Shown one piece after another: positions 925-48,700 of a stretch of 64,000 nucleotides of DNA. The notes beneath the pieces are model-generated. The model was not told the DNA's origin. It ran no database searches and saw only the letters and a program-made list of their open reading frames with translations. This DNA is from Marsupella aquatica. Its lineage: Eukaryota > Plantae > Marchantiophyta. How positions within the stretch are numbered: the first letter of the stretch is position 1; every line of letters begins with the position of its first letter. The position numbers were made by a program, and so were the translations under genes. The DNA is taken from NCBI GenBank assembly GCA_973895155.1, contig OZ316898.1, forward strand, positions 19,541,292 through 19,605,291, in the 5' to 3' direction.

Positions 925-3900
925 GAGGATTTTAAGATTATTTGATACAATTTCGCCTTCTCAGCGCTTTAATTTGTGCTATCAGATTCACAATTATATA
1001 AGCGAAGTTGTTGTTGTATTTAAGTAGAGTCTCTGCTGAAAGCCTCCTTGTCAATCATTAAATTATACTCTCCAACCCTGGATGCTGGGAAGCTAGTATT
1101 TCATTCTGCCATGTCGATCAAGCAGTTTAGAGTATTATTGCACTCTCGATTATCGTTAGCTGCACCACTGCCATGAGTTGTTTGGCTTAGTCTACGTAGT
1201 ATCAGGTGGCATCATTTTCCGCATTTGCAGGTTGATCGATAACACAAATCCTTAACGAGGTTCATCTTAAAATCTTGATATATGTGTTTGTCAATTTTGC
1301 ACATTTCAGGAGTTCTGTTGGCGTGCGACAGGTAACGATTTCATTAATTGATTCTGTCAACCAGAAGTGACTACGTACATAAATAGGCTCTTCATCGGAT
1401 CTTGGAGAAGAATTTGAACAGCCTCAAAGGAGACTGCTCTCTTGAACGACTTCAATTGTGCTACAGCGCATGACTAACGCTCTTTGTCGACAAGTTGCAC
1501 TCCAAGCCAGTAGCGGAGTCGCCGACTCGGTAAGCCGACCATACCAATTCCATTTGTGGGAAGTTTATATTTACCATTACAAACCACACTAACTTTCGAG
1601 AAGGAAGCCAGAAAGCAAGCTTCGGGTTTCCGCACCTTCCTATGCGAATCTCTGAAATCGATGGAGTTGCAGTAGACTCGCGTCCGCGTAGGTACTAATA
1701 AATCAACGTGAGAGAGCTTTGGAAACCAATTATTCAGTCTTTCAGCCCATCACTTCAATGAAATGGCTTCCAAAGGTCTCCGCAACATGTTACATTAATA
1801 TTCTCATGATGCATGATGGTCAGAAATGACAGCCCTACGTTTCCAATGAAAACATTTAAGTATGGCTGTCTGAATAAATAGGGGTGAATATCACTTCAAT
1901 TGAAGGTGTCTATCTGTTGCTTTTTAAGCCATCTCTCCCTGATGCAGCGTAGCCGGTCTATACTAGCACGCACTTTTTCTAGCTACGATCGTAACTTCGT
2001 GACTCACAACTTTCACTAGCACCATCGTGCAAGACCTGCCTGTCAAAGTACATGTCTACGAGACGTCCGACGATATGTTGGGGATTCTCAAGACCAAGAG
2101 GAGGGTTCCAACAGCTTTCTATGATTTCAATAGGCTTCCATTTGAACCTTGTCAACTCAATGCATGAATGTGATATAATTTTGGAAGCCGTTCGAATTGC
2201 AAGAACCTGGAGAATAGACTTTAATTGATTCTAACTTGTTGGCACCCCGAGCAGCAGACAGGAACGTACGTAGCGAGACTGCACTGCACGGAAGAAAATG
2301 TGTACAGCTCTTCCAGCGCTCTTTGCGTTCTCAATGGGCTCTCGACGGATCTCCATCGTGCTCCTCTGGCTTTTGTTTGTGGCCCGTATGGATGCTCAGA
2401 ATGGGAGCATTACCGAAGTTCAGACTCTTGTGAAGTTCAAATATTTGACGGCCTTAGATACTTGGGTATTAACCAGAGGGTACTATAGTACGTGGAAGGA
2501 CACAGACCAAAGTCCCTGTTCTTGGTGGGGAGTAACTTGCTCGGAAAATTTAACGGTAACGAGGCTTATTCTTTCGGGTTGGGGACTGACAGGACTGCCA
2601 AGTCTCGGAGTTTTGTCGAACCTTACCGATCTTCGCGAGTTGGATTTGTCATGGAATAATTTCAGAAGTAGTGTCGGTGCTTTAAGCATTAGCATTCCTG
2701 ACGACATCGGATCCTTGGTTGCGCTTACTCACCTTTCCCTTGCATATAACCAGTTCTCAGGTCCGATACCTAGTAACATTTCTGCCTGCCGCAGCCTACA
2801 GTACCTAAATATGGGATACAATGAACTTACCGGTGTGCTCCCCGATCTGAGCGTCTTGCGCAACCTACAGTATCTCTACGCCGAAGGCAATCAACTTAGT
2901 GGCCCTTTGCCGCAATGGCTAGGGCAATTACACAGCCTTCTGGCGGTGAAACTGTCGGCTAACAATTTTACTGGTAAAGTCCCCTCTCTTTCGAACCTAA
3001 CCGAGCTATTGGAGATAGTACTTGATGGCAACGCCTTTACGGGGTTTGAAGAGCCAGTGTTCCCAGGTTCAAAGAGTTTAGAGAACTTGTCCGTGCAGGG
3101 CAATCAACTAGGGGGTCCGATTCCACCTAGCATTACTAATTTTCGGAATATGAGGATCCTTAATATGTCCAACAACCAACTCATTGGCCAGATCCCTCGT
3201 GGGTTTGTGCTAAATATGAGCCAAGCCATCTGGTTGGATTTCTCTTATAATCAACTCACGGGAAACATCCCTTCGAATTTGCTGCAGCCTACTACCATTG
3301 CCGTTTATATGCCCATCTTGAGGTTCTCAAACAATCGTCTGACTGGTTCGATACCATTCGATGGAACCCAGCAATACCATTACGATACCTTAGATTTTAG
3401 TAACAATAAGCTGAGTGGATCAATTCCTTCCATTTGCAACAATGGAACTAGCTTTTTCTCCCACTTTTGGCTTCAAAACAACCAGCTAGAAGGAGACATT
3501 GTCGATTTTCTCGCGCACTCTTATTCTTGTATAGTGGACTTGCAAGTAGCAAACAATTCCTTCAGTGGGGATCTGTCGAGAATAGCTTCTATCAGTGAGA
3601 CTAGTATGGATTTGGTTAGGAACCGATCGCTACTACAAACCGTAGACCTCAGCAACAACAGTTTTTGGATGAGTACCACAGAAGCCAATCCTGATCCATT
3701 GAGGGTTTTGCTGGAGTTTTTTGTGCTCAATACATCTGTGACGAATTTTCGAATCCCAGGGAACAATTTCTCCGGAATTCGTCTACCTGCATACTTCTCC
3801 GTCGCGGCAGATTCCCTCAATTTTCTGGATTTAAGTCACAATCATCTGATGGGGAACATATCTGACGCAGCATTCAACAGCAGATGGTTCCCGGCAGTCC

Positions 3901-5327
3901 AATCTTTGAACTTGTCTAACAATGATTTGACGGGACCAATCCCGGAAGCCATTGTCATGCTTCCGAAAATAGTGCTTCTTGATCTCTCCAACAATAGTCT
4001 ATCTGGATCGTTTCCTTCCCTACTGCCAGCAAGTATCAATCTTCTCTTTGCAGGCAATGATGGACTTTGCGGTGGTCCCTTACGACCTTGTACGCAAGCG
4101 GCACGTTCACAATGGTGGATTTTGGTCGTTGCAATTGGGGGTTCTATTATAATAGTTGTGGTAAGTTGTTTGGTTGTTGCGTGGCGATGGAGAGTGTACC
4201 GCAAAATGCACCAACAAGATGCTGATTTAATCAAAACACTGCTGGAGAGAGAATCAGCATCGTTGATGTCCCTTCGCGAGCTGAAGAAAGCGACAAACAA
4301 CTTTGCTGAGGATTCACAAATAGGAGAGGGAGGCTTTGGGACTGTCTACACAGGCAAACTTAATGACGGAACCAAAGTGGCCATCAAGAGAAGCAAGTTC
4401 GAAGGATTGGAGAAGGACAAACAACGATTCTTGAACGAGATCAGGATATTGTCTCAAGTAAACCACCGTCATCTTGTGAAGCTCCTCGGTTGTTGCATGG
4501 AGAACAAGATTGCTTTGCTTGTCTTTGAATTTGTTTCAAATGGCACACTCCAAGAACATCTTCAAGGAAAGACGGAGGGTATACATTTGAGCTGGAAACA
4601 ACGGCTTCAGATTGCGATTCAAACAGCAGATTCTCTAAACTATCTTCATTCAGCTGCAAGTTTCCCAATTTATCATCGGGATGTCAAGTCGGCCAACATT
4701 CTGTTAGACAAGGACCTTAATGCCAAAGTGGCAGATTTTGGAATCTCGAAGTTGGCTCCCCTCGAAGCGACGCATGTTTCAACAGTTGCAATCCAAGGCA
4801 CCATGGGCTATATGGATCCCGAATACTACACCTCCTACAAACTAACCGATAAAAGTGACGTGTACAGCTTTGGTGTGGTCCTATTGGAACTCATCTCAGC
4901 AAAGGCTGTCATAGACTTTATGAGGGGTGAAGAAAAAACCAGTTTGGTGAATTTTGCAAGCATACACGTCGAGAATGGGGACTTGCAAGAACTGATCGAT
5001 CAGGCTCTTCTGGAGACCTACAATGATTCGACCGGTAATGGCAGGGAGTCAATCTTGAATGTGGGCAGGCTAGCTCTGAAGTGTCTGCAGATACGATCCA
5101 AGGCCAGACCAAGCATGCACGAGGTGTGGAAAGAGCTGCAAGATATGTGGCTGGCGCTTTCATGCACGTCCGAGGAATTGTGCTCTATTAATGATGAAAA
5201 GAAGGACATACTGCACAATTACGCAATTATCCTATCTGAATCTTCCCCTTCTGGATCTTCCCCTTCCAGTTGCCCTAGTTTTAGTGTACAAAGTGATGAT
5301 GGTAGTATTGAGATGTCATTCAGGTAA
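925..5327. repeat. Copy 1 of a segmental/tandem duplication (upstream region plus LRR-RLK), partner of 59668-64000+
   Basis: Sequence from GAGGATTTTAAGATTATTTGATACA at 925 recurs almost base for base from 59668; the offset in the CDS is 58735. The right boundary cannot be seen because copy 2 runs off the window. Confidence 0.97.
2298..5327 (+). CDS. Intronless LRR receptor-like Ser/Thr kinase (RD type) with a WAK/WAKL-like kinase domain; the true start may be the ATG at 2334
   Basis: 1009-aa ORF with a signal peptide (ISIVLLWLLFVA), LRRNT (W..TDQSPCSWWGVTC), many plant LRRs (LxLSxNxLSGxIP), a C-cap (GNDGLCGGPLRPC) and a TM helix. Kinase motifs: IGEGGFGTVY, VAIK, HRDVKSANILL, DFG, GTMGYMDPEY, SDVYSFGVVL. 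Confidence 0.96.
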   Translation: MCTALPALFAFSMGSRRISIVLLWLLFVARMDAQNGSITEVQTLVKFKYLTALDTWVLTRGYYSTWKDTDQSPCSWWGVTCSENLTVTRLILSGWGLTGLPSLGVLSNLTDLRELDLSWNNFRSSVGALSISIPDDIGSLVALTHLSLAYNQFSGPIPSNISACRSLQYLNMGYNELTGVLPDLSVLRNLQYLYAEGNQLSGPLPQWLGQLHSLLAVKLSANNFTGKVPSLSNLTELLEIVLDGNAFTGFEEPVFPGSKSLENLSVQGNQLGGPIPPSITNFRNMRILNMSNNQLIGQIPRGFVLNMSQAIWLDFSYNQLTGNIPSNLLQPTTIAVYMPILRFSNNRLTGSIPFDGTQQYHYDTLDFSNNKLSGSIPSICNNGTSFFSHFWLQNNQLEGDIVDFLAHSYSCIVDLQVANNSFSGDLSRIASISETSMDLVRNRSLLQTVDLSNNSFWMSTTEANPDPLRVLLEFFVLNTSVTNFRIPGNNFSGIRLPAYFSVAADSLNFLDLSHNHLMGNISDAAFNSRWFPAVQSLNLSNNDLTGPIPEAIVMLPKIVLLDLSNNSLSGSFPSLLPASINLLFAGNDGLCGGPLRPCTQAARSQWWILVVAIGGSIIIVVVSCLVVAWRWRVYRKMHQQDADLIKTLLERESASLMSLRELKKATNNFAEDSQIGEGGFGTVYTGKLNDGTKVAIKRSKFEGLEKDKQRFLNEIRILSQVNHRHLVKLLGCCMENKIALLVFEFVSNGTLQEHLQGKTEGIHLSWKQRLQIAIQTADSLNYLHSAASFPIYHRDVKSANILLDKDLNAKVADFGISKLAPLEATHVSTVAIQGTMGYMDPEYYTSYKLTDKSDVYSFGVVLLELISAKAVIDFMRGEEKTSLVNFASIHVENGDLQELIDQALLETYNDSTGNGRESILNVGRLALKCLQIRSKARPSMHEVWKELQDMWLALSCTSEELCSINDEKKDILHNYAIILSESSPSGSSPSSCPSFSVQSDDGSIEMSFR

Positions 5328-5999: not shown

Positions 6000-6720
6000 A
6001 CTTTGGTCCCCTATTTTGGCCCTCCTTGGACTCAAACCCAACCACTTGGACGCAAAGTTAACTTGTTATGCCCATAACTTTTTGGTAAGATGTTTCTAGG
6101 TGAAATATATTAGCCCATTGTGATCAGGCCTACACGTTGCTCATGCCCAAACACTCAAATTCATCATATGTTGAGGTTCTGGGAAACAACAACAAAAATT
6201 CCTTGCACGAGCAAATTTTTGCTCATACGACCTCTAAAATTTCCATTTCCAACTTACTCCCTTGTTAACAACCTGGTCGATAACATCCATTTTTGTAACT
6301 CATGTTTTTGCCACCGAACTTGCTAGCCATTTGGAGTCATAAAAAACATAAAATATATGAAAGGCAAAAAAAACAAAAGAAATAAAACACCATTGGTGTC
6401 TAGCTAATATGTCGTGCGCATACACATCGTTACACAACATACATCGCTTGTCACATACATCCAGACATAGTCACATTGCCACATCACAAACACAAGAGAA
6501 TGGAATACAAGTGGAACTCATATCCACACATGTCCAAAACCCACAATCGTCCCCCTAGCTGGGAGTAAAGTCCCCTAACTCTAGCTAGCCATGAGTTCTA
6601 CAAGGTTGATGTACACCTTTTCAGGTGTGAAGATCAAGAGGTCGGGTGCAAGTGAGCCCCATCGATCACCTACTTGCAATCCATATCTGCAAAGAGAACA
6701 CAAATGATAACTAGTCGGCT

Positions 6721-8010
6721 TCACCGACAGTGAGGACACAACCATGATCCACTAGGAATCACCTGCAGTGGTGGTGTCAAACATGACATGTGCCATCCTC
6801 TAGAACACTTATCACAAATCAACATAGTAGCTGCTCCCTGAGCAGATCCACACAACATACATTTCAAGCCAGCACGAACATGTGCCAAGCTTGGATCTAC
6901 TGTGCTATCAATGTTGGGAAGGTGACATGGTGCACAGTTGCGCACATGATCGTTCCAAACCATACCATCGCATCCCTCCAACATCAGGACACCAGAAGGC
7001 AACACTTCATGCACACGTAAGATTGTCCGGTCTGCGGTCACATCAAGTGTTGTGGGTGCTGTCTGCTACAAATAAACATAATCACTAGGATGAAATCGGC
7101 GAATGCTTGCACGGTAACCTCCTCCACGAATAGTGGCATACCTGAGCAAAGTATCATGATGTTGGGCAATGGCAAGGTTGTCAAAAGCCATGGGCATCAC
7201 TCTCTGAAATACCCGTGCTCACTCTGAATACACCTTGACCCAAACATCAGGATCATCCAAGTTCACAACTGGTGCAGCATCATGACGAATAGCTGCTGGA
7301 AAATCTGGCTCTCTACCATAGAGCAAAAAGTAAGGTGAGAAGGATGCAAGTGATGCTTGCCGACTGAAACGGTAGCCCATAGCTAACCAAGGTAGCTGGA
7401 GATCCCAATCTTCCAGATGACCAACCTGCAAGCCATACTTACGCAATCCTCTCTTCACAGTTTGCACAACTCTCTCAGCTAATCCATCTGCCTCAGGATG
7501 ATCACGAGAGGTAGTACAATGATCAATCAAAGCTTGTTCACACAAACTCTCCACGGAACTCAGTTCCCTGATCAGTCAACACCTTAGCTGGTGCTCCAAA
7601 ATGACTGAGTACACGATCCAAAAATGTAGCAGCAACTCCTCCACTGGCTTTATCTGGCAACGCCACTAGCTCAATCCACTTGGAGAAGTGCTCCACCATG
7701 ACCAAAACATACCAATTATGACGTTGGGTAAGAGGTAATGGACCAGCAAAATCCAAACTCCAACGATATCCCAAACCCATGATCGGCAACGGGTGCAACT
7801 GGGAGTGGGAGCATTAAATGATGCTCTCACTCTATCACATACCACACACTTAGCTATCAACTGTTGGACATGAGTGCGCATACCACACCACCAATATTGT
7901 GTCTACAGCAAGCCGTAAGTGCGCTTCATACCAAAGTGACCCAACTCCTCGTGCGCATGTTGCACCAAATGTACTCGCTATGATGGTTTTGGTACCACCA
8001 ACACTCTACC
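6721..8010 (-). pseudogene. Retrotransposon integrase (HHCC zinc finger plus DDE core) fused to a C-terminal PHD finger
   Basis: HEELGHFG...CVVC zinc motif; core motifs WSLDFAGP, VLTDQGTEF and GLAERVVQ. The C-terminal CMLCGSAQGAATMLICDKCSRGWHMSCLTPPLQVIPSGSWLCPHC is a canonical C4HC3 PHD at about 6721-6870. Confidence 0.93.
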
Positions 8011-8379
8011 ATCATGCAGTACTCTCAAAAGATGGTTTCCCTCCCATCGAAACCTCTTGGCTCTCTGTAGAACCCTGTCACATTCTTTGGCATCAACACT
8101 GCCAACAATAGAACCACTACGCAGATATTCTAACACTCTCACATCATTGTGAATATCTTGCTGTCCAGAAATTACCTCACCAACATCCACATCTGAAGAC
8201 TTATTATCCACTCCATCTAATGAGGTAGAGTCCATAGATCCACCGTATACTCGCACCCAACAAAGAAAGGCAGATGCATGCCATCCTGGCACCATCTCCT
8301 TATCTGACTCATCATGCCATCTGGCTCTAGTCTCATCCTGCTGACTGGTACATGGATTGCGGCTTAATCCATCTGCATC

Positions 8380-9798
8380 CAAGTTCACTTTTCCAAGCCT
8401 ATGCATCACCTGGAAATCATACTCCTGTAACAACAATGCCCATCATGCAAGCTTCCCTGTAAGCTTGTCAAACTCCATTAACCACTTAAGAGGCTGATGA
8501 TCCGTGATCAAGGTGAAGGGGTTACCAAACAAGTAGCAACAAAAGTGTGCAATAGCCCACACTGCTGCCAAACACTCTCCCTCATAAGAGCTATACTTAG
8601 TCTCTGCTGAATTGTTTGATCTACTGGCATAAGCCACAACAAACTCATTCCCCTCATCATCCTTCTGAGTCAGCACTGCTCCAAGTCCTACTCCACTCCA
8701 ATCAGTGTGTAGCTGAAATGGTCTGCCTGAAATGGGTCTTCTCAAAATAGGGGATGATGCCAACCTTTGCTTCAACTCTTGAAAGGCATGCTCCTGGTCA
8801 TCACCCCAAGTCCATTCCTGATCCAACTTAGTGAGTATGGTTAAAGGTTTAGCAAGCTGGCTAAATCCTTTAACATACCTCCTGTAGTAGCTCGCCAATC
8901 CCAAGAATGCACGAACTCTACTCACATCAGTAGGACAAGGAATCTATGTAATGGCCTCCACTTTAGTCTGTTGTACACCCAATCCCCTTGGGTATATAGT
9001 GTGGCCCAAATACTCAATCTGGTCTTGGAAGAACTTACACTTGCTAGGATGGAGCTTCAACCCATGTGCTCTTAATCTCTCCAACACAATCTACAAGTGT
9101 TGCTGATGTTCTTCCACAGTAGAAGAATAAACCCAAATATCATCAATATAACATCTGACAAAATCCAAACCTGCAAGGATTTGATCCATGACTCTCTGGA
9201 ACTCAGCTGGTGCATTCTTCAACCCAAATGGTAAGAATAACCACTGATACAAACAATCTTTGCCATAAGAATCAATCCCCCAGAATATTGTCTTGGACCT
9301 GTCAGCATGCCTAATTGGAAGCTGATGGTACCCTACCCTCAGATCCAATGAACTGAAAACCTTTGCATGCCCCACAACATCAAAGATCTCCTCAAGTGTG
9401 GGCATGGCATATCTATCAGATTTTGTCTGGCGATTAATCCATGATCTATAATCACCACACATGCGCCTATCTGTGTAATTGCCATGCACATCCTTCTTGG
9501 CTGGCATCACTGTGGCAGATGCATACTCCCCATATGAAATCTCCACCAATCCAGCCTCCAACAAATCTTGAGTTTTGCTTTGAATCAGAGTTCTCTCCAT
9601 GTCACTGTAACGGTATGGCCTACGAAAGATTGGCACATCACTAGCCAATTCAATCTGAATACCAGGACCCTTTAATGTCCCCAAATTCTTCATGCTAAAT
9701 GCAAAACAATTCCAGTAACTCTTCAGGAATCGATGCATGCGACGTCTCTCCTTCCCTGTCAACTTAGGGCCAAGCTGTGGTTCCCAACTCTCCACCAA
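8380..9798 (-). pseudogene. Gypsy-type reverse transcriptase and RNase H
   Basis: RT motifs RMCGDYR, FSSLDLRVGYHQ, LPFGLKNAPAEFQR and YIDDI; connection VRAFLGLASYYRRY; RNase H motifs LHTDWSGVGLGAVLTQ, YEGECLAAVWAI and LITDHQPLKWL. Confidence 0.95.
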
Positions 9799-10043
9799 AT
9801 CCCTAATATCTCTTTGTAGAGTAGAAGAGATAGCCGATGATTGCTATTTAGCAGTAGATTGAGCAGTCCCTTCTTGCTCAACAATCTGTCCAGCCTTGGC
9901 CAATCCTGCCATAGGTCCATGGACTGTCTACTCGCCCCCAGCTGTGATCATTACTGTGTCAGTGGACCACAAGCTCACAAGGGATAATCAGTAATTCCAA
10001 CAGAGCGCATCCGCAACTGTTCAGCTACTCCCAAGCTGATAAT

Positions 10044-10960
10044 TCAAGTCAAACAATTCAGATCCATTGCTTGACCAAGAACTGCAGTGGTGCGAGTCAA
10101 AAATCCCATAGCACGCTCTCTCTCATCAGCAATAGGCTCCACTAACTGCTGGAGAGTTGTGTCCCACACAAGTCCAGGGCCACCTGCTCTGAATGCATAT
10201 GAAGCAGAGTGGCTTACAAGAGTGGGTAATGCACAACGTGGGCACCCAACTGCATTGACCATTGCCAATGGAGGTCTATCAGGTTGGGTCACACCCTGTG
10301 CACGACCCCCTAGATCCAAAATATCATCCACGGTCACTAAGGTTGGTGAGCGTGGAATGCTGTCAAATGCGCCCTTCAGCACCTCGCATGGGATCAAATT
10401 AGTCCACCACAAGCGTGGACGATGTGCACGAGAACCCACACGTGCAACATCCAATAACACAGCAGGTCCAATCCAAGACCTCACCTGGTGAACACTGGCA
10501 ACAATCCGAGTACAATTGTCACCTAACAATGGCACATTCTCCAAAATGTATGTTGGAGACCATGTCTGATGTAGCTGGAGATGAAGCAGCACCCGTAACA
10601 TCTCCCAAAACAATGCAAAGCGTGGATCATGAAGTCCATGCCCAACGCCAGCTCTAGATTGGCCCTGACATGGCCAATCAATAATCACCAAATCAATGGG
10701 GCCAACACGATGCAGATGATCCGCCCCCAGCAATGAAATATCAGCAGGTAGTGCATGCTGATAACCATGAACAGCATCCACTGGCAGCAACTATGGATAT
10801 CTATCCACCAACATAGCCACATGTCGCAATGAGACCCTCCGTGCTGTCTCATCTATCTCCACATACAAATAATGACGCACAGGAATTCATGCCTGAAGAA
10901 CAGCAGCCAATCCAGTGCTAATCCCACCAAAAAGATCCAACAAACAAATACCCTCTGGTG
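10044..10960 (-). pseudogene. C5 cytosine DNA methyltransferase domain (DNMT3-like motif set) embedded in the retrotransposon pol
   Basis: Reading upstream through two in-frame stops gives motif I (LLDLFGGISTG) and motif II (YVEID). Further on: motif IV (IDLVIIDWPCQG, catalytic PC), VI (YILENV), VIII (AHRPRLWWTN), IX (ERERAMGF) and X (LGQAMD). Confidence 0.92.
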
Positions 10961-11090
10961 GATACTGCCAAGCAATAGGAGTGGTATCCAATGGTGAAAG
11001 AGTCACCGGTCCATCTGCAAGAGACTGCTCTGCTCCTGACTATGGTGTAAAAGCATGACGCCATGCATCATGTACCAATCGTGCTGCTGC

Positions 11091-11760
11091 CTATGGCAAG
11101 GCCTGTGGAGTGCCCCACAGTGGTGGCACCACACTACCAATAGGTAATCCCCGCATTATGTGCTCCTCATGAGACTCCTCCAATGGTGGAACATCTGCTG
11201 CATGCGCATTACCCTCAATCAAATCATCAGGTCCAGTAATTACTCCATTGAATACTGCCAAAGACAATGGTGTGGATTTAGGGCCTCCCATAGGTCCACT
11301 AAATCTCACTGGCAATTTTCTCAATCGAGCATCGCCTAACTGCCAATCAGGTCTATATGACACTGATTCCTCCCAAAAATCAAGAATAAATCCCATGGGG
11401 TAGAGCACTGTACATCCCACCAACACATCATATGACTCTGCCTTAGTCAGAATAGCTCGCGCCTGTATTTGTGCGCTATCTGTGGTATGACCTTCCTGAA
11501 TCCTCAAATCAAGAGGTCTCCTGATAATGTGCTGTGTAGGTGTAGGTCCCCCCAATGAAGTCTGAATGGGAAAGGGACAATCCTCCAAAATCCTCTGGAT
11601 GCAATCCCAATCCACGTATGGCAGACTTACCCAACATCAAGGGTTGAGCACCAGTATCCAGTAACACTCTCTCTGGCTGATATACTGTTCCAGATGGCCC
11701 AACTAATTGGAAGATACCACTCCGATCATTATCCAATGACACAACACTAGGTTTAAACCT
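11091..11760 (-). pseudogene. Retroviral-type aspartic protease region (frameshifted)
   Basis: VLLDTGAQPLMLG active-site motif; YDVLVG flap-end motif in the next frame. Confidence 0.85.
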
Positions 11761-12119
11761 AGTCCTCTCAAATGCAGGGCATGCTGGTAAATCCACCAAC
11801 CTCGCTGCTGCTGCATGCCATGTCTCACTAGTAGCAGTAGGTGGCATGGTCTTCACTGCTTCAACATTGTAAGCTGCTTCTGCATGGGAAGCAACCACTG
11901 GAGTGTCCTCACAGAGTGTAGCTGCCAATCTGAACACTTTTGCAGGACCAACTCCCAAGTTCAACATGTCTGTCACTGAAAATAATGGGGTGCGTACTAT
12001 GGCAGTAGTTGCCTCCAGCAGAGTACCTATCATCCCTGCTGCATCACTACCTGATTCTGCCAACTTACCCAAGTCACGGTTTGTCAGAACCGGGTTCATA
12101 GAGGCAGTCTGAACTGTCT

Positions 12120-13830
12120 CTAATAATGTAAAAGACTGAGGAAGCTTTGTTTGCCGACGTGCATCCCCCTCTGTGGATCTAGCTCCACTACTGCTCCTCG
12201 GGGCTCAAGAGCTTTGGCTGCCCCACGTGTCAAAGCTGCTGATGCATCAATATGTGCAGTGCCACACATGAATCCCATGGTGGCAAGGTCTCCATCAGCT
12301 CCATAAGATGTGGAAGGACCATGGGATGTGGAAGATCCATAGGATGTAGATGCCCCATCACCAGAAGTAGGTCTCACCTGGGAACTAGCCATGGTAGCTA
12401 GCTGTTGCTCCAATTGAGCAATCTTAGCATCCTTTGGATCTATGGTTACAGCAGGGGCAGCGTCACCTCCCTGTCTCCCTGCATGTGGCATGCCACGACC
12501 ACGTCCACCACCTCTACCTCCTCCTCCTCTTCCCTAATCATGTGTACGGGATCCTCCTCTCCGTAACTCAGGATGGAGTGAGAAACACCTATCCTTGGTG
12601 TGTCCAGGAGCTCCACAATGATCACACTGTCGCTGATCAGGCGCTGATGCTCCCCTGATCCTCTATGATCTGGGCAATATCTCTGTGCATGATCCCCACC
12701 ACATGTGCAACATCCTGACTCTTGTCCAGCATTAGAGGGCATAGGTCTCTGGCTGGTAGACTCTCGTGCAGTAGGCTTCTCCCTCTGGCTCTTCCGTGCG
12801 TAGGCTGTGGTGTGGATGTAGATGCAGCCTTTGGTGCTTCCTTGGCAAATCCAGAAGTCACCACCTTTTCATTCACCATATTGAGCTCAATGCGCTCAGA
12901 AAGGGTAAAAACAACTACTAATGTGGGATCTGCATCCCTAAGTAGAGTGACATCTCTCACTCTACGTCGTAACTCTTTGTCCAAAATTGCATACCAAAAC
13001 TGGACTGCCTGAGCCTCTGTCACTCCCTTGGTGACAGTGATCAATCTGCGCATACGAGTGTATGCCTCACGTAGACTCTCTCCAGTCTTGCGCTGGAACT
13101 CCTCAAGACCCTTCAACTTATCAGTTTTCACACCCTGATAGTTCTGCTTCAGTACCTCAAAGAATTCCACCACAGGGTTAAATGCTGGTGCAACTCCAGT
13201 TCCTGCCACAATCACATCGGCAGGAGTAGCGGTGGATGCTACTGGAGTGCTGTTGATGGATGGTGTGCCACTCTGGCTAGTGCTCCTAGATGAAGCAATA
13301 GTTGTGGCAATGGGTTGGGCAGCCGCACTAGTGCCATAGGTGATGGACACATAATTAGGCGACCAATGCTGCCTCCATGCCTCAATCTCAACCAAATGAG
13401 CTTTCCAAAACTCATGGTAGTCATCCATGGGTGGCCCCTCCAAATGCTGAAATAATCCCTTCCATGCCATGAAAGGGGTAAACAACGTGGCGTTACGCAA
13501 TGTCTGCATATTGCACCACGTATCAAACTCCTGGATGAAGTCATCCAGATCAATCGTGCCAACTGCACCAGAGTATCGTCGTGGGCCCTTCGTAGCCCCG
13601 TACATCTCGTCCATATCCCACAACAAAGGTGCAACCACCTGATGACGAAGAGAATTGGTCACTGAGTCCTCATCGGAATCACTGTCTGAAGCTGCACTGC
13701 TGACCGCTACCAATGCCGCTGGCCGTAACTGCGCCCCACTCCGAGTGAAACTGGTCCGTCATCCATCGGGTAACCCAGCAGCACCAGAAGAATCCGTGGT
13801 GACCAACCTAACCTAATCTATATGCTAACC
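12120..13830 (-). pseudogene. Retrotransposon gag (frameshifted) with a CCHC zinc knuckle
   Basis: Retrotrans_gag-like segment (FQRKTGESLREAYTRMRRL...FWYAILDKELRRRV) and the knuckle CCTCGGDHAQRYC. It lies 5' of the protease on the same strand. Confidence 0.8.
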
Positions 13831-15559
13831 CTAAGGGCAATCTGTATGTGTCAACACCACAAGCACTCACCATGGTGTGTTGGGCATCACTCCAACATCA
13901 CCGGGAGAGAAATACGCAGCACAACTAGAATGTCCGGTTGCAAACCCAGATCATTCCTATGGAATCAAGCGCCCACACCAAACTAACATGACGCATAAAC
14001 AGGAAGCATGTGTGAAGAGGATCCAAAAACAAGAATGGATACCATTCAACTCTCCACACAAAAGCAAATGCAAATCAATATGACAATGTGCATAAGGTTC
14101 AAGGAAGAGCCTTCATAATAGGCTTCACAATGGCACTCCAATGTTGTAGATGAGAATCAAGGCAAAATTGGTTCAATCTGTGACTCTAGATGGACTCAAA
14201 AGTATCAAAAACTCTAAAACAACCTTTGATTTGGCCTAGAATAGGCCTCTAAACAAATCGGGAAGTGTATAAAGCCCCCTGACGCTTGAATCTAAACAAC
14301 AAGTTGTGAATGCTTGTGTGTACACAAGGTGGGATGAGAACTTACTAGTTAAGCGCTTGCGGCTGGGAATAGACCCGGGATTGGTGACCTCGTGCTTCGC
14401 CTTGCGCTCGTGACTCGGAATAGTCCCGGGATGGGTGACCTCACGATTCGCCTTATGTGCGCACAGTTGTGTGTGTACACAAAACAGAATTCGTCGGGCT
14501 CAGAAATGGCAACATTTGCCACTCGAAAGCAGCGATTTCCTTCACAAAAACGCCGTCCGACAGCATACACAATTTGGCAACATCGGCCCTCAATCCCTTC
14601 ACAAAAAACGCAGCTTCAGAAGCGTCAACGATTCATGATCGTTGACAGTTCACTTCCGCACCTGCGTCATTAGCGCCACTTTAGTGCAGATCGACAGAAG
14701 CTAACGATCAACACGATAGCCTCAACGTCCCGAACTGATTTCCTTCGATAGCCAGCCCACGATAATGTCCGAACTCAAAACCTGTCACCAATCACAGATC
14801 TGTACATCGATCGGGAAGTAGGCCAATCGGACAGCAACTCAACATCGCTACAGATCGAGATACCAACGATCTGTTCGGTAACAACACACGATTCGAGCTA
14901 CCACGAACCGTCGACAACTCAATCAATCGAACTTCTGTCCGCACAGTCCGTACAACAGATTTTGAATCTGATCTTTCAATGTAATCTCAATACAATCGGC
15001 ACAACGATCCCGGTCAACAATACCCCATCGATCCCGCACCGATCCGATCACACACGTATGTCAAGCCAACGCACCTTGCACTATTCAAGGAATCCACGTT
15101 ACACAAGCGGAGCTCACAGCCACCATAGCCACACTCAAGCTCCTCTCTCCAAGGCTCAACATTGAAAGATGACCTTTCAATGCCTCACAAGAGAGAAGTA
15201 CCCTCTCACACAAACCTAACAGAACCTTATCGGCTCATATAACACACATACCAAACATACGGATCTAGATAGTACAATACACTCTAACACTACCTAGAAT
15301 GGTGTGACAAATAACACTTTCCTAGATAACAAAAGTCCTGTTTGCTCGCATTATACAATACCTCAAGCAGGTCTTATAGCTAACAAAACGGGTATAACCA
15401 CCTTTATAATAAACCACAAATAGTTACTCGTAAAAACAAATGGGTGGTAAATTTTTTGGAATTTGTTTTTTTGGAATTTTTTATTTTTTAACTTTGTACA
15501 GTTGACATTTATTTGCACCAGAGCTAGTAATAGTATTGCCTGATACTAGGAAAAAGTTG

Positions 15560-15948
15560 TAGTGTTTTAAATTATTTTGGAACTTGTGATTTTTAATGAC
15601 ACACGTTTTAGATTGTTTTGTTTATTAGTAACAGTGAGTAAAGCTTTTAATGACACATTTTTTAGATTGTTTTGTTTATTAGGACAGGCCGGGCTGGGCA
15701 GGGATAGGCCAGGACAGGCCGGGGTCGGGCCGGGAGAGGCCGGGACAGGCCAGGGGTTGGGCCCAGACAGGCTGGGGCCAGGCCGGGAGAGGCCGGGGGT
15801 CGGGCCGGGACAGGGTTGGGGCAAGGTGTGAGCCAGCCAGGGCCAGGAAGTCATGGGCGGCCGGGCTGGGCCGGGAAGAGTTGCAAGTTAACTAACTCTA
15901 AAGCCTCTATTTGCCAAGCCTCTATTTGCCGGGCAAATCCAAACCAGG
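15560..15948 (-). mobile_element. Partial copy of the GC-rich TIR element family seen at 30346-31417, in the opposite orientation
   Basis: GGCCGGG-type repeats followed by GCCTCTATTTGCCGGGCAAATCCAAACCAGG, which approximates the reverse complement of the 30346 terminus CCCGGTTTGGACTTGTCCGACAAATAGAGGC. The left end was not located. Confidence 0.65.
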
Positions 15949-21859: not shown

Positions 21860-23015
21860 TTGTGGTTGTCATAGCCAGTCTTTTGTGCAATGACATCTTT
21901 TATTCAAGAATGTTTTTGTGCAAGGAGAAAAAAGAAAAAAAGAAAAGTGAACTTTTGTGGTTGCCATAGCCACTATTTTGCACAATGATATCTTTCACTC
22001 AACAAAAATATTTGTGCAATAATGTATCTTAACAATTACTATTTTTATTCAATGATATCTTTTGCACCATGATCTATTTGTCAACAACATCTTTAACCAA
22101 ACAACATCTTTTATGCAGCGCACGGGGATTGAAAGGATACCGACAGAATGCTCATCTTTGCTAAACCTGAAACTGATAATATAACATTGTGCCAATTTAT
22201 AGAGTGGTCACCATTCAAATGCAAGGGCATTTTGGGTAAAACAAAACAAAGAAAAAGACTCACTCCTTTCCTTGACTTTTACTTCATAACATCTTTCAGA
22301 GAACAATAGCTTGGGTGAAACGACACCATTTTTCTTATAACATCTTTTACTTCACAATATCTTTGGCAAAATGACACCTTTTTCTTAACAACATCTTTCA
22401 CATAATGGCATCTTTGGCAAAATGATTTCTTTTTTCGTAACTACATCTTTTTACTTCGTGACATCTTTCACATAACAACATCTTTTGTGCAACACACGGG
22501 TATTTTTCCTGAACGATGTCTTGGCCGACACTATATTCTTTTCTCAATGACCTCTTGGCCAACACAACATCTTTTGTTCTCACCGACTTCTTAATTGGCC
22601 GACACAACATTTTTTTTTTCAATGACCTCTTGGCCAACGACTTCTTTTCTCTCAATGACCTTTTGGGCAACACGGCATCTGTCCACGACCTCTTGGCCAA
22701 CACTACATATTTTCTTTCAACAACCTCTTGGCTGACACAACATCTTTTTTTCTCAATGACATCTTGGCCAACACAACTTTTCTCTCAACGACCTCTTGGG
22801 CGACATGATATCTTTACTCTCAACGACCTCTTGAGCAACACGACATCTTTTCTCTCAATGACCTCTTGGGCGATACAACATCTTTTCTCTTAACGACCTC
22901 TTGGGCAACACGACATCTTTTCTCTCACCACCTCTTGCCCAACACAACATCTTTTCTCTCAATGACATCTTGGCCGACACGACTTCTTTTGTGCAACGCA
23001 CGGGTATTGAGCTAG
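21860..23015 (+). mobile_element. Non-autonomous Helitron-like element with internal minisatellite; 3' end at CTAG 23012-23015, 5' end uncertain
   Basis: Degenerate ACAACATCTTTT/GACCTCTTGG repeats end in GTGCAACGCACGGGTATTGAGCTAG|T, a hairpin plus CTAG|T typical of plant Helitron 3' termini. Decayed versions of this end occur near 22113 and 22487. Confidence 0.75.
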
Positions 23016-24210
23016 TGCCACTATGATACAGAGAAGTAGTAGGCGGCACGAGGGAACCTCTAAGAAGACTAATTTGAGAAGGAAAATTTTCCTATTCGCG
23101 AATAGAAGGGAATTGAGTGGTTGCACCCACAGCCATAAAAAGGGAGAATGAAGGGAACTGCGTAACAATTGTGGAACGTAGGCAATTTGGAGGGGCAGCC
23201 AGTTGGTACAGAGTGTGCTAAGGCCCTGTCCCAAGTACCTTATGCAAATAAGGTCCAAATATAAGAGTGGGCTTAAGCCCTATGTCAAGAGACTTTCATT
23301 CTCGTAAGAACAAGAGTACTAAGCATTTATGGGGTTCTATTTGAACACAGTAACTATGTTTATTTGTTTTTAAAAAAGGGGAAATGTGTGAAACCTCAGA
23401 GAAAGTGAATAGTTAGCCATAATATTTGAACTCTAGACTTATGAATCTCTCTACAGTACATGTTTCTCTGGCAAACTAAATTTTAAACTGGTTCTGTTCC
23501 AATTTCTCAGGGCTCAATGTACTGTCATACGCGTTTATGACAGTTGTAAGAATGATCTAACAAAATTTCCAAAGCCAGTTGCGCTGCTTGCTCTCGTGCA
23601 TTTTCAACTTAAATAAAAGAAGAGAGTAAGGAACCATCGCTTCTACTGTAGTGTGAGACTGGGTTCTCCCTGAGCAGACTCGATCAAAGGTTTGAATTGC
23701 TTTGTTTGATTTGTTTTTTCTCTGGGAACTGTAGGCATAGATTTTCTGCCGCGTTGAAATCTTTTCTGGATTGCTACAGTCTTGAATTTCTTAGGTTGAG
23801 TCCTACAATTATGACGCAGGCATGGGCCACATTCGAAAAGTTTTAGCTATCATGGGTCCCTCCCTCCCTATTCTCGTACAGTAGTCCCTGATTAGACTGT
23901 GGGACCTCACAGTGGTCAGCCTGGATATCTTTTGACAGTAGGCTTGGGACGGACTGGGCTATGTCAAATCTACTGCAGACTGGACTTGTTCAAGCTACAG
24001 CTCGAGGACACTAATTGCACAGATTGCACGTGAAGAGACAGCGCGTGTTTTTCTCTGGTCCGTTGATATGTGGAAAACACGTCGACTCTACCTTAGTATA
24101 ATTTTGTACCGTCAAACAAATTAGTCTAGTAGAAGCTCTCTGCGATTGACTCCTTGTTCTTCTCAACTAGGGGCCACTTTGGGAACATACACCTCAACTT
24201 ACCACTTTAG

Positions 24211-27030: not shown

Positions 27031-28299
27031 TTGTCCAGTTCAAGATGGATGGATTTTGATTTCTTTTGACGAACACATTTAGCCCGGGGCACAAATGCAC
27101 GAGGAAAGACTAAGGGCACAAATGCACAAGGAAAAACGAAGGGCATAAACACAAAAGAACATGATGAATCTCCCGTAAGGCAGCTTGAAGTGCTACATGA
27201 TGAATCTCCCGTAAAGTGCTGCTGCAGTCGCGACTCAGTCCGACTGCTGCTCGTGGTTGGGCGTGACGTGCTCGTCGTTGGGCCAAGTTCAGAGCCTGGT
27301 GGTCCACCTTCAATCAACCAAGGCTTCCTTTGGTATGTCTTCTCCCTCACTCACTCTTGCAGCGGGATTCAGAAGGTCATCGTCTGGATTAAAGGTTCGA
27401 GCAGTGTCATCCGTCACTCGATCTGTCCCGTCTAATTTCACTGGGTGATGCCAACATTTGTCAACCATGGTTACAAAACGGAGCTCCTTCTAAGTAGATT
27501 GGCCCATGAACGACGCAATTCAACACCGGCAGTGTAGATGTGGACTTTGATCTGCCGGTTGAAGTTTTTGAGGATGAGGTCTTCGATCTGCCAGTTGATG
27601 TTTGGAACAAGCTGGCTTTTGTTCTTGTATGTCTCACATTAGACTATTTCAGAGTTTGGAGCCAAACTATTCCTGCTCAGTCTTGCCTGCATTCTTCATT
27701 TCGTTTCCATTCTGGTCCTTATGAATTGTTTGCGATTCTGCTTTCTCCTGCTGTTTCCTCGTTCTCGCTTCGGGTAATCGCTGTGTGTCATTCCTATCGC
27801 CTTCGATCAATCATTCAATGGCTGCTCTTCTTTTTCTTGTGTTCTGCTTTCAGGATCGAAGACTCTTCTGCCTTCGATCTCTCTCTCTCGGCAATCTGCT
27901 AGTCCACCTGCCGTTCTCTTTCACTTAGTAATTCTTCGCTGCTGTCCTTATGGGAATGCTATCTCTCGCCGGTAATACTCATTGTCTCCTCTTCAAAAGA
28001 GCTGTCTGTCGATGGAATTGGAATCTCTGCTTTGTGCTTTCTTTATTAGATCGACCAAAATCCACCCCCAATGCCAGATATTGACAATATCACAATACCA
28101 TGAGTCTGAAGTGCAAAAGAATGTTCGTAGAGATCTGCAGTGCTGCCCGGTGATAGCCACATAGTAGGGGACGATAGATTTTTTCACATTCCACTTATAC
28201 TTTATAATGCTCAGGGTGGGTATTGAGAGATAAATTTATTGTTTATTTGTTCTTCTTCCTCTAAAGCTGCACAATTTTTTTATGGATAAGAAATTCTGT

Positions 28300-29368
28300 C
28301 GGTGGAAACTTTTGCATCTCTGTTGGCTTAGGAAAGGGGCGGCCAGAGCCTCTGGAGTTTACATGGAAAAGGGACGGGGCAGGAAATTTTGCTTTGTACT
28401 CCAAGAACCCTGAAAATGTCATTTTATGCCTGTATAAGGATGATGACACTAAAGTGCCATCGATGGAGATTGATTTGGATCCACTCATTCATCGGACTGG
28501 AGATGTCTGGCATGTTGAATTGGAGGATATAAGTGGATTCACTCAATATGGTTATTGTTGTAAGGGAGGACTAAGTTGGGAGAGTGAAAATCTATTCCAT
28601 GGGTGCCATGTGCTCTTGGATCCCTAGTATGCAAAGCTTTTGGCTCCGTTTGAAGCTGGCCAAGAAAAGTCCTCATTAGTGGCTACTGTCCTTGGGTGAT
28701 TGAAAGCCAAAACTGTTCCATTCAACTGGGAAGATGATGCTTTCCTGCATACTCCATTAAAATGTTTGTTCGCTTATAGATTGAACGTGACAGGCTTTAC
28801 GGCAGATGAGTCCAGTGACTTGGATGAGGGTGTAAGGGGCACGTTTGATGGTCTAATACAGAAAGGTCAACATCTAGTTAATCTTGGCATTACTGCAGTC
28901 ATCCTGGAGCTCCTGGATTTGATGATCCTTTGAACCCTTTCAATTTCTTTACCCCTGCCGCCCAGCTTTGTCCTGGAGATCGACAATTTGTCAGCATGTA
29001 CGTCTCGCAAAAGAATGGTGAATCAGCTTCACAAGCTTGGCATCGAGGTCATCTTAGAAGTGGTGTTCGGTCACACTTCAGAAGGTGGAGACGAGTCACC
29101 CAAAACAGTGTCGTTTCGTGGCATTGACAATTCAACGTTCTACATTCTGAACGAATTTGGCAGGGTTGTAAAATCGGAGGTCGGAGCAGACAATGCATTC
29201 AACTGCAATCATCCCTTCGTGCAAAACTTGATTGTGGACAGCCTAAGATATTGGGTGGAGGATTTCCATGTAGATGGTTTCCTATTCGTCAATGGTTCTG
29301 CTCTTGTAACTGGGCCCCATGAGAAACCACTTTTGGTGGAAGCCATCTCTTTTGATCCTATCTCCTAA
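28300..29368 (+). pseudogene. ISA2: Isoamylase-2-type (GH13 debranching enzyme, non-catalytic subunit) pseudogene fragment
   Basis: CBM48-like PLGV...NFALYS..PENVILCLY...EIDLDP..HRTGDVWHV, then VLLDP*YAK, GIEVILEVVFGHT.EG, RGIDNSTFY, NCNHPFVQNLIVDSLRYWV..FHVDGFLFVN and PLLVEAISFDP. DGFxFxN in place of DGFRFD is the ISA2 pattern. Several stops and frameshifts; 3'-truncated. Confidence 0.85.
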
Positions 29369-30345: not shown

Positions 30346-31417
30346 CCCGGTTTGGACTTGTCCGACAAATAGAGGCCTTTGGACTCGACAACCGACAAGT
30401 TGTCACCCGGTCCACCCCGGTCCCCGGTCCGGCTCCCGGCCGGTAATTCCCGGCCCGGCTACTTTCCTCCCGGCCCTTAAAGCCAACGGGAAAATCTCGC
30501 CCCGGACCAAACTCCCCGCCCCGGTCTCTACCCCCGGCCCGGTCCCTTCCCGGCCCGGCCCCGCATCCCACCCGGTCCCTTCCCCTTCCCGGCCCGGTCC
30601 CTTCCCTTCCCGGCCCTGCCCCTTCCCTCCCCCTTCCCCTCCCCCTTCCCGGCCCGGCCCTACCCCTCCCCTTCCCGGCCTCTTCCCTTCCCCTCCCCCT
30701 TCCCGGCCAGGCCCTCCCCCTCCCCCTTCCCGGCCTCTTCCCTTCCCCTCCCCCTTCCCGGCCCGGCCCTACCCCTCCCCTTCCCGGCCTCTTCCCTTCC
30801 CCTCCCCCTTCCCGGCCCGGCCCTACCCCTCCCCTTCCCGCCTCTTCCCTTCCCCTCCCCCTTCCCGGCCTGGCCCTACCCCTCCCCTTCCCGGCCTCTT
30901 CCCTTCCCCTCCCCCTTCCCGGCCCGGCCCTACCCCTCTCCTTCCCGGCCTCTTCCCTTCCCCTCCCCTCCCCCTTCCCGGCCCGGCCCTACCCCTCCCC
31001 TTCCCGGCCTCTTCCCTTCCCCTCCCCCTTCCCGGCCCGGCCCTACCCCTCCCATTCCCGGCCCTGCCCCTGCCCATTCCCGGCCCGGCCCTCCCATTCC
31101 CGGCCCGGCCCTGCCCCTTCCCGGCCCGGCCCCGCACTCGGCCCGCCCTCACCTAGTGTTTGTGAGGCCGGGCCGGGTGCGGGGCCGGGCGGGATGCGGG
31201 ACCGGGCCGGGAAGAGACCGGGCCGACCCGGTGCCGGACCGAGCCGGGAATGGAAGGGGCCGGGAAGAGTCGGGGAGGGAATGGGCCGGGCCGGGTCGGG
31301 CCGGGGCCGGACCGGGGCATAAAAAGGAATATGCGACAAATAGGGTCATTTTCGGGCGACAAATGACAAGTTGTCGTGTCCGACAACACGACAAGTTGTC
31401 CGACAGCTCAAACCGGG
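30346..31417. mobile_element. Non-autonomous TIR element with an 8-bp TSD (GTCTGTTG) and a C-rich/G-rich foldback interior
   Basis: TIR CCCGGTTTG...CAAACCGGG; GTCTGTTG at both 30338-30345 and 31418-31425. Subterminal GACAAGTTGTC palindromes; interior CCCTTCCCGGCC repeats that switch strand near 31155. Confidence 0.88.
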
Positions 31418-40455: not shown

Positions 40456-41473
40456 TCATCCAAGGAGTTCGCCCGGGGGCACGACACTGTTATCGGGAAT
40501 TGCAGCGCCATCCCTTGTGAGTTCCTCATTGTCAAGCCCACAATTTGTAGCAAAGAATTGGTCAATGTTCGATTGCTTCAAGTTGTTGAGGTGTTCTCTC
40601 AAGAAAAACTTCTTGATTTTGTTCAACTCCAATGTCAGCGCATATGTATCATACTCCTGTTGCTGAAGAAACTTTGTGACACCCTCAAACTATGCGATGC
40701 CTGCTACAAATGAAATGTGGGGCTCAAGCACTGTCTCCCCATCTGGTACATCTTGAGGCTCATCAGGATTCACATCTCGAGCCTCAGATTCATTTGGGAC
40801 CTCATCGTCATCGTCTGCAATGTGATCAACCAAAAAATTTGCAATGTCTTTATCGTCAACGGGAAATGTGGGAGCATTTCGAACGTCGTCTGCAGCTAAA
40901 TACTCTTGTGCATCAAGCGTCACAGGATATGACAACTTTAATTGCACCAGATGATCTGCTAGGTCCTCCAAACTCTCACGCAAGTCCTGATCATCTACTG
41001 TCGCCTCCAAGTCCAAATCTATGTCCCGTCTGCAACGATTTGGCCTCCGATCCTGGTAAGTCACCAGTTGACAATGCTCCCAACATTTGCGGATTGTTTG
41101 TTGAGTGACTCCATCACTCCATGCTCGAACGACCATTGTCACAACCTCATATACATCCATTTTAAATAGTTGTGAATTGTCAAAGTCTTGCAACTGCTTC
41201 TTGATGAAAAATTTTCGATACCAACACTTGAAGTTCTGAATAATTCCACCATCCATAGGCTGAAATCTACTTGTTGTGTTGGCAGGGAGGAAGAAAACTT
41301 TCACCACCTTCAATTGGTCAGCAACAGGGCCCAAGAGGTGGCCGGGGGCATTGTCCAGGAGGAGAGCCACATTTGTTCGACCCAAAGCCTTCATGTGCTC
41401 CTCGAATCTCAGGATCCAAGCTTGGAAAATGGTCCCTGTCATCCAGGCCTTCTTGTTGGCATACCATTGAATT
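40456..41473 (-). pseudogene. pogo transposase, 3' half (DDE_1 domain, DD33D)
   Basis: WYANKKAWMTG, LLLDNAPGH, FLPANTTSRFQPMDGGII and IRKCW. Reading through the TAG at 40690 gives the C-terminal LKQSNIDQFF. Confidence 0.93.
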
Positions 41474-48102: not shown

Positions 48103-48700
48103 ACCTGAATAATGTACATGCATAGTGCACCTGATGTGGATACCTTGGAGATTGCAGACATTCCAATTTTGAGAAGAAGGACCTCTGTAGGAGAGGATGC
48201 TTAGGCAACAAGTACCCTAAGTTCATTACTTGTTCCTGGGTACATGCCTTCAAAAACTTCCCTTAAGCCTTCTAGGAACTTTTTTAACTCTGCAATCATT
48301 TTGATCACGACTTACATGACACTGCTTAAATTAAATCAGGACTTCTCATTATGAGCATATAAGTTACAAGGCTATTTAATTTGCGAGAATTCCCTTAAAG
48401 TGTACCAACATTTTGTATTCTCATTGAATGTCTGCCCATTTACAACATCTGTATGTGGCATCACAAAACAATTGCACTTGTCACCTTCAATATTGTGAAG
48501 GCACATATTCAAACTATGAGGTGCATGCTTGCAGGTGTCTAGTATGTTTGTCCCAATATTTCTCCCGTTTGGAATCGGAGCAGAGACTCACCAGACGACT
48601 GGACTGGACCAAGTTATAAACGCAGCATTTTAAGGGCCCTCCGATTATCAGGTGAACGCATTATCTTATGGTCTGCAGTGATTAGGTGGCCCGTGTGTAC

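Follow-up and report, generated by a model that had tools for sequence, protein, structure and literature searches.

A decayed Gypsy-type retrotransposon of a liverwort carries a DNMT3-like methyltransferase, a PHD finger and split terminal repeats

The 64,000-nt stretch of DNA analysed here (contig OZ316898.1; hereafter the window) contains on its minus strand, from 15309 to 6410, a Gypsy-type retrotransposon in which six-frame translation and Pfam searches identified gag, protease (PR), a C5 DNA methyltransferase (DNMT), reverse transcriptase (RT), RNase H (RH), integrase (INT) and a PHD finger, in this order. Judged by its broken reading frames, the copy is a dead and decayed member of a high-copy family in an apparent liverwort host. 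Active members of the family likely produce RT and integrase by stop codon readthrough, methylate their own DNA and insert as circles that are cut inside the long terminal repeat (LTR), a reading to which a probability of about 0.62 was assigned. The original prediction, made from the letters of the window, had proposed the same domain order, which was borne out. Its coordinates (6721 to 13830) took in the domains and were too short for the whole element, and it contained neither the split terminal repeats nor the putative self-priming site that were found here.

Coding capacity and decay of the window copy

The coding region, all on the minus strand, begins with a frameshifted gag at 12200-13760, which shows a capsid-like region, remnants of zinc knuckles and a Gly/Arg-rich stretch and matches a natural relative at 62%; the gag-like span by Pfam and translation is 13758-12637. 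The aspartic protease at 11330-11790 (LLDTGA, with the DTG motif near 11660) carries a frameshift near 11588 and is followed by the DNMT at 10044 to about 11000 (PF00145, E value 1.6e-6, above the curated cut-off). Downstream are the RT with its YIDD motif (9091-9843; PF00078, 1.7e-16), RNase H (8443-8943; PF17919/PF17917), the integrase (7219-8000) with a zinc-binding part, a D,D(34)E core at 7813-7219 and a frameshift near 7800, and the C-terminal C4HC3 PHD finger (6721-6870, in a span of 6721-7065; PF00628, 1.8e-11).

Compared to natural relatives, whose reading frames are uninterrupted, the first open reading frame (ORF1) of the window copy has 5-6 stops and several frameshifts and ORF2 has 9 stops. 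Within the DNMT itself there are two stops, and a third closes it; 11 residues are also deleted between motifs IX and X. The observed/expected ratio of CpG is 0.33 in the element, as expected after long methylation, compared to 0.71 in a neighbouring kinase gene.

The methyltransferase is DNMT3-like and has travelled with the element

Read through its stops, the window DNMT shows motifs I (LFGG), IV (PCQ), VI (ENV), VIII (AHRPR), IX (ERERAMGF) and X, in agreement with the earlier claim of a C5 methyltransferase between protease and RT. A comparison of the single sequence with solved structures placed DNMT3A/B/C on top (6e-8), and a profile matched DNMT3A at about 1e-21, the best DRM-type chain at 2e-11 and M.HaeIII at 3e-9. 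An AlphaFold model of the natural DNMT domain of the relative L028 had a predicted local distance difference test score (pLDDT) of 92, and all 30 of its 30 listed Foldseek matches were DNMT3A/B/C. By profile and modelled fold, the DNMT of the element is DNMT3-like. A bacterial Dcm-type or a DRM-type enzyme was rejected, since DNMT3A/B/C rank higher by sequence, profile and fold search.

Across 77 DNMTs, P/E-C-Q was kept in 68 and EN/EH-V/A in 59. Ratios of nonsynonymous to synonymous substitution rates (dN/dS) between families were 0.10-0.23 for the DNMT and 0.05-0.12 for RT, and those among decayed close copies were 0.2-0.55 for both domains. These ratios indicate that the DNMT of the family is under purifying selection, even though the window copy itself is broken.

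Protease precedes the DNMT in 65 and RT follows it in 66 of 81 sequences (80 loci and the window). The loci that lack RT or protease beside the DNMT are mostly at contig ends or belong to a distant family, and one (L015) is internally deleted. The DNMT occupies the same slot in relatives from Marchantia, Calypogeia, Sphagnum, Closterium and Klebsormidium. FastTree phylogenies of RT-RH (114 rows) and of the DNMT (77 rows, excluding near-duplicates) both placed the window with elements of Calypogeia, Marchantia and a Sphagnum-like group at 99-100% Shimodaira-Hasegawa-like (SH-like) support. The trees that the original prediction had proposed as a check thus broadly agree, indicating that the DNMT travelled with the element. 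The extension of the DNMT-Gypsy architecture into embryophytes, also proposed there, was supported by the liverwort and moss relatives in both trees.

A conserved stop codon follows the methyltransferase

ORF1 of the window ends in TAG CAA TCA at 9846-9838 on the minus strand (stop at 9844-9846), and RT continues in the same frame. The protein of the closest relative, which is 83% identical, ends at the same residue; conservation of the stop is thus based on this one relative (two records) within the window's own family and on other families. Among pattern-caught ORF1 proteins, a set biased by its length limits, 43/48 end 71-156 residues past motif X. A stop followed by CAR-YY was found just before RT in 23/28 copies of the Sphagnum-like family, in 3/3 copies of the L028 family and in the window (1/1), as compared to only 5/583 stops that arose by decay. 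The full CAR-YYA is present in the window and in all three copies of the L028 family (L028, L030 and L031). In L028, two ORFs of 1369 and 1047 aa are parted by a single stop codon, and across families the linker (321, 438 or 447 nt, depending on the family) is open and in frame but for one stop.

UAG-CAR-YYA has been described as the type I readthrough signal of tobamovirus (PMC3542737). TAG CAA TCA in the window matches this signal, and the full motif recurs in the L028 family; here the signal, if functional, would set the ratio of Gag-PR-DNMT to RT-integrase, and the moss-like family differs in having CAR-YYC. Since the conserved stop follows the DNMT, the DNMT belongs to the Gag-protease ORF. 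The single continuous frame from protease to PHD that had been expected for the element was therefore not found.

The element ends in split repeats with a predicted self-priming site

The window copy extends from TGTCA (15309) to ACGACA (6410) between two 4-bp target-site duplications, AATA on the plus strand, at 15310-15313 and 6406-6409. Terminal direct repeats or ordinary LTRs were sought in this copy and none were found. What it has are two halves of a repeat. The high-copy half B (14982-15309, minus strand), which begins with TGTCA at the 5' end of the element, is marked by a depth peak and by contig joints at 14982 and 15307-15310. Half A (6410-6546), which closes the 3' end with ACGACA, is marked by diverse loose ends at 6410, and a polypurine tract (PPT) at 6547-6556, found in the same place in relatives, adjoins it. 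Contigs of the window's family join 6546 to 14982 as well as 15307-15310 back to 6410, the latter with GC-type letters between.

Complete relatives have the order B1-internal-PPT-A1-(2 nt)-B2-A2, which explains both joints. An exact 4-bp duplication flanks 7/8 complete long copies; among four short copies of the form B-internal-A, it is exact in two and has one mismatch in the other two. The A1-B2 junction, in a count of 14 copies that leaves out seven pattern matches away from repeat borders, reads GACA.GC.TGTC in 5, a C-to-T-type variant of it in 8 and TC in 1. This junction is near-palindromic (CA·GC·TG). The PPT adjoins the start of A, and in B2-A2 the end of B is joined directly to that start. 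A short B-A derivative with a deleted internal region is nested in another copy (L023:5538-5819) and resembles a miniature non-autonomous form.

Directly past half B lies a predicted self-priming primer-binding site (PBS; 14971-14981), and 12 nt within B (15159-15170, minus strand) form its predicted self-primer, being complementary to the bases directly past the B end, as compared to a maximum of 9 nt in 200 control windows. In 12/22 copies, 10-17 nt directly past B1 are complementary to a site 140-183 nt into B. The sequence of this complement differs in each of four families, and in 15/22 copies it beats all 200 control windows. Its layout corresponds, at the level of sequence, to the self-priming layout of Tf1. 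A tRNA-type primer-binding site with TGG was not seen after B by eye, with no comparison to a tRNA set. A TATA-like box is present 26-35 nt upstream of the self-primer site in 7/12 copies, and none was found in the window copy. Half B likely houses the promoter together with R/U5, the promoter role being suggested by the TATA boxes of relatives. Downstream, the predicted 5' untranslated region (13760-14970), which contains a 51-nt tandem repeat (14353-14454), differs among copies, and in run X1 depth drops there from about 2e5 to 5e3-5e4. In L028, the path from B to the untranslated region runs along the end of a contig, where a repeat has probably been collapsed.

The PHD finger and the integrase

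A PHD finger closes 95/175 element proteins, with C4HC3 kept in 76/95. In other PHD fingers, the residue two positions before the His forms part of the cage for trimethylated H3K4 (K4me3). In the element proteins this residue is Gly in 69/76 and aromatic in none, and the window PHD likewise lacks the aromatic-cage Trp at this position. Among the best 60 of 89 matches, the highest were to the fingers of CHD4, ATXR5, DPF3, KDM5, PHF21A and UHRF1, most of which read unmethylated H3K4. The original prediction had placed a PHD on the integrase, which PF00628 supports. The PHD is not peculiar to this element: relatives in Klebsormidium, Coleochaete and chlorophytes carry one as well, and it is ancestral in the whole green-lineage clade. 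No chromodomain was detected in Pfam scans of the window and of the relatives' proteins, and the PHD stands in its place. With the methylation writer and the chromatin reader on different products, it is the integrase, and not the DNMT, that the PHD would guide.

Proposed replication route and its alternatives

The land-plant range, the PHD, the conserved stop, the split repeats and the self-priming complement can be read directly from the sequences; how active members use them is inferred. Transcription would probably start in B1 and end in B2, and the 5' end of the RNA would prime its own minus strand in the manner of Tf1. With similar probability, most ribosomes would stop after Gag-PR-DNMT, so that production and packaging of the DNMT would reach Gag-like levels; the remaining minority would read on into RT-RH-INT-PHD. 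For RT, the LTR would be A-GC-B, which places the PBS and the PPT at their proper positions and makes the complementary DNA (cDNA) an ordinary one with true LTRs. It is somewhat favoured that the ends of this cDNA are joined, which would fuse the end of B on the PBS side to the start of A on the PPT side exactly as seen at B2-A2, and that the DDE integrase cuts the internal palindrome with a stagger of 2 nt and thereby inserts a permuted copy. Such a cut would leave a pair of CA-3' ends, each with a 2-nt overhang, as in a processed integrase substrate. HIV-1 integrase can cut a palindromic circle junction (PMC1905944). The short B-internal-A form seen in the window most probably derives from a one-LTR circle or from later recombination between A1 and A2 and would be incapable of replication in cis. 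The packaged DNMT may, at about even odds, methylate the cDNA, and binding of the PHD to the unmethylated H3 tail, which would tether integration to such chromatin, is favoured slightly. A wider formulation, which must be regarded as tentative and as somewhat improbable in its entirety, describes a green-lineage clade abundant in liverworts and mosses whose replication route, one without a described counterpart among integrase-bearing retrotransposons, combines self-priming, ordinary cDNA and a DDE integrase inserting a circle cut at the LTR palindrome, and in which, in the bryophyte branch, a readthrough stop loads the DNMT into particles at Gag-like levels, copies arrive methylated and the mark may choose the junction.

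A number of observations weigh against this route. All 14 A-xx-B junctions are on the 3' side, and 0/30 visible 5' B copies (some of them duplicates) are preceded by A; one of two equal circle junctions therefore appears to be used, a bias that the model leaves unexplained. One long copy (L047) has no 4-bp duplication. The self-priming complement fails to beat all controls in 7/22 copies, and 4 of those that do beat them pair with another site in B. The Sphagnum-like family mostly has CAR-YYC, with the full CAR-YYA in only 1/28 copies, and has an ATG two codons past the stop, which makes reinitiation possible there. No conserved stop follows the DNMT in a fourth family (31 loci, about 42% identical; CAR in 0/31), and gene models of Klebsormidium and Closterium run the DNMT straight into RT, indicating that the Gag-level arrangement of the DNMT is lineage-specific. 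At least one relative, P0133, is PR-RT-RH-INT-PHD without a DNMT, which is therefore dispensable in the clade; among the 175 element proteins, one has PR-RT with no DNMT. Several of the 80 loci are probably one insertion assembled twice, the trees are FastTree trees with SH-like support, and dS is near saturation in the distant family pairs behind the dN/dS ratios. In the stop-less fourth family, a gag-protease frameshift was considered as well and rejected, as none was evident in six decayed copies.

That the B-A-B-A ends are by-products of tandem insertion, nesting or recombination of ordinary elements, with integration through normal linear ends, could be suggested by the 3'-only bias, which a symmetric circle does not account for, and by the short copies with a duplication, which are common (the window, L022, L017 and L029) and resemble plain TG...CA elements. 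However, the ends of a short copy lack the redundancy that strand transfer requires, the PPT and PBS adjoin A and B at their inner borders rather than at the integrated ends, and B1...A1-xx-B2-A2 with a single duplication occurs in two distant families, with both junctions present in the window's family; elements of Klebsormidium nitens have DIRS-like repeats as well. Ends of this origin are quite unlikely. Production of RT-integrase by reinitiation, splicing or an internal promoter instead of readthrough is unlikely too, if slightly less so. The ATG and the imperfect motif of the Sphagnum-like family would fit reinitiation, and Ogre elements provide a precedent for splicing, as they splice out a spacer between PR and RT, but the linker is open and in frame across families but for its one stop, and the window and L028/L030/L031 have no early ATG and the full CAR-YYA in 4/4 copies.

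The remaining alternatives concern the DNMT. That it is a separate insertion, or a host gene captured within an ordinary Gypsy element, could be suggested by its occurrence in two different slots within the clade, ahead of RT in 22 proteins and after RNase H but before integrase in 38, and by the relative that lacks it. This explanation is highly improbable and, on the sequence evidence, already refuted for this lineage: sister copies carry the DNMT in the same slot with the same in-frame spacing across families, no repeats or duplication of its own surround it, depth over it equals that over the rest of the element, and it is under purifying selection with a tree that broadly tracks that of RT. 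The separate insertion that the original prediction had named as a possible refutation was thus not found. Somewhat unlikely, though the least so of these alternatives, is that the DNMT chiefly protects the internal, integrase-cleavable junction and thereby affects junction choice, or acts on host chromatin at the insertion site, rather than serving to methylate the cDNA in general. The junction contains CG and CHG cytosines, its spacer has decayed from GC in 9/14 copies (8 of them by C-to-T-type change), split repeats and the DNMT co-occur in K. nitens and in bryophytes, and the 3' bias requires some asymmetry; yet the decay could stem from host methylation after insertion, given the CpG ratio of 0.33 in the element.

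Abundance and distribution of the family

In three public runs, summed contig depth over the coding region exceeded that of flanking DNA about a thousandfold in X1, by several hundredfold in X2 and by more than a hundredfold in X3; such a figure is no copy number, but it shows that the family is very abundant. A search of public runs for the element listed no RNA run, which has no bearing on expression. The window DNMT as query matched 56 longer proteins from Marchantia, Calypogeia, Sphagnum, Closterium, Cymbomonas and others (top match 83%). ORF2 of an intact relative gave 465 protein matches, the best 120 of which added Riccia, Klebsormidium, Coleochaete, Haematococcus and Tetrabaena. Viral contigs were also searched for relatives of the element and none were found.

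Among 175 element proteins, 22 have the DNMT ahead of RT, and a further 38 have it between RNase H and integrase. The latter order (P0042, P0046, P0118, P0169 and 34 others) characterizes a sister group that includes the chlorophytes Tetrabaena and Cymbomonas, and since the DNMT there is homologous, the domain has changed slot within the clade. In protein P0192, about 610 residues without a DNMT match lie between RNase H and integrase and may represent another, or a very diverged, accessory domain. P0196 (P0076 cluster), the ORF2 of a plant-type element, is listed publicly under an uncultured cyanobacterium and probably comes from a mis-binned eukaryotic contig.

Host and neighbouring DNA

An ISA2-like sequence at 28265-29365 shares 73% identity with that of Calypogeia fissa and 57-62% with those of Marchantia and Riccia. 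A maximum likelihood tree of 19 rows recovered it as the sister of Calypogeia with 100/100 support, nested in a clade of liverworts supported at 100/98. As this gene groups with Calypogeia, the host appears to be a liverwort, a placement based on one gene fragment. The land-plant host that had been suggested earlier is thus confirmed and narrowed, and a charophyte host, under which the novelty would have been reduced, is rejected by the same tree. Three stops interrupt the frame of the ISA2-like sequence, whose branch is longer than that of its Calypogeia match, and it may be a pseudogene or contain assembly errors. A 35-nt repeat forms arrays at 22400-23016 and 32557-35545, which are inverted relative to each other and separated by about 10-12 kb, with an inverted end match of 53 nt (89%) between 22964-23016 and 34333-34385; they may mark the ends of foldback-type elements around this gene.

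Two copies of a leucine-rich repeat (LRR) receptor kinase gene with its upstream DNA, 98.7% identical and 58.7 kb apart, lie at 925-5265 and 59668-64000, the second running past the window edge. A pogo/Tc5-type transposase on the minus strand is in two pieces, 40690-41472 with the helix-turn-helix and the start of the DDE domain and 58574-59269 with the rest of it, parted by about 17 kb of other DNA. Inside this gap, on the plus strand at 47395-54286, a CACTA-type transposase (Transposase_21, DUF4218, DUF4216) lies beside NSD-like PHD and BRCT stretches, which could possibly be a large CACTA element with chromatin-reader cargo. Degenerate GC-rich tandem repeats (GGCCGGG/CCCTTCCC) are found at 15680-15870 and 30450-31330.

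Relation to known elements

The closest described system is KnitGypsy-Dnmt3 of K. nitens, a Gypsy element with a DNMT3-related domain in Pol, purifying selection on it and DIRS-like repeats (de Mendoza et al. 2018, PMC5890265), and the window element is of the same kind. Both have the Gypsy PR-RT-RH-INT set and, inside the polyprotein, an unrearranged DNMT3-related domain (called as such here by sequence, profile and modelled fold), and both show kept catalytic motifs and purifying selection. The DIRS-like repeats, named in a legend of that paper, correspond to the split repeats here on the assumption of an identical order. A K. nitens protein (P0125) has the order PR-DNMT-RT-RH-INT and shares a DNMT clade with the window (97% SH-like), and in the RT-RH tree K. 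nitens rows occupy several branches with weak deep support. The window element differs in its liverwort host and its relatives in Marchantia, Calypogeia, Riccia and Sphagnum, in belonging to a very abundant family where few copies were reported in K. nitens, and in the conserved stop between DNMT and RT; the main text of PMC5890265 has no mention of a PHD, and no self-priming or integration model was met in the parts consulted. De novo CG methylation has been reported for retrotransposon DNMTs (PMC5890265). EpiLTRs of Cymbomonas and Euglena, as described in a preprint (bioRxiv 10.64898/2026.05.21.726589), are likewise LTR elements with a DNA methyltransferase and a chromatin reader, but they combine DAM, a DNMT4-related DNMT and a chromodomain, whereas the window element has a DNMT3-like domain and a PHD and no DAM.

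Split direct repeats are also known from Ngaro, PAT and VIPER, in the order A1-ORFs-B1-A2-B2 (PMC6681497), from which the present elements differ in their DDE integrase, TG...CA ends, PPT and 4-bp duplications. No tyrosine recombinase was found in either ORF of L028 or of L031, two antisense L028 frames of 166-169 aa and a 701-aa gag frame of L031 being unscanned. The DDE integrase, TG...CA ends, PPT and target-site duplication are shared with canonical Ty3/Gypsy elements, the difference being that two complete terminal LTRs are absent and relatives have split repeats. A self-priming complement beside the 5' repeat, seen here at the sequence level, is shared with Tf1/sushi and the plant Tcn1 chromoviruses (PMC10085805, PMC6317226), which have ordinary LTRs and a chromodomain, and an in-frame stop between two ORFs is shared with Tj1/Tosmo. 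The fission-yeast elements (PMC10085805) have their stop between Gag and protease, whereas here protease and DNMT are on the abundant side.

A 2019 review considered such elements absent from land plants such as tracheophytes (PMC6338049), and streptophyte elements appear in PMC12344493 by citation of the 2018 work. No report of bryophyte DNMT-Gypsy elements, or of their PHD, stop or readthrough site, self-priming or integration route, was found in a search that had most subscription literature, Repbase Reports, figures and the bioRxiv supplement outside its scope.

Because of the split ends, finders that demand two LTRs (as in the methods of PMC6317226) would miss this clade. Its ORF1 is filed among ordinary methyltransferase genes, and counts of DNMTs can be inflated as a result. 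If true, integration of a circle cut inside the LTR would link LTR-type and DIRS-type replication. The finding takes methyltransferase-carrying retrotransposons from an algal curiosity to land plants, including Marchantia polymorpha, and since methylation mutants of this species exist, it becomes possible to test why a transposon would encode its own silencing enzyme.

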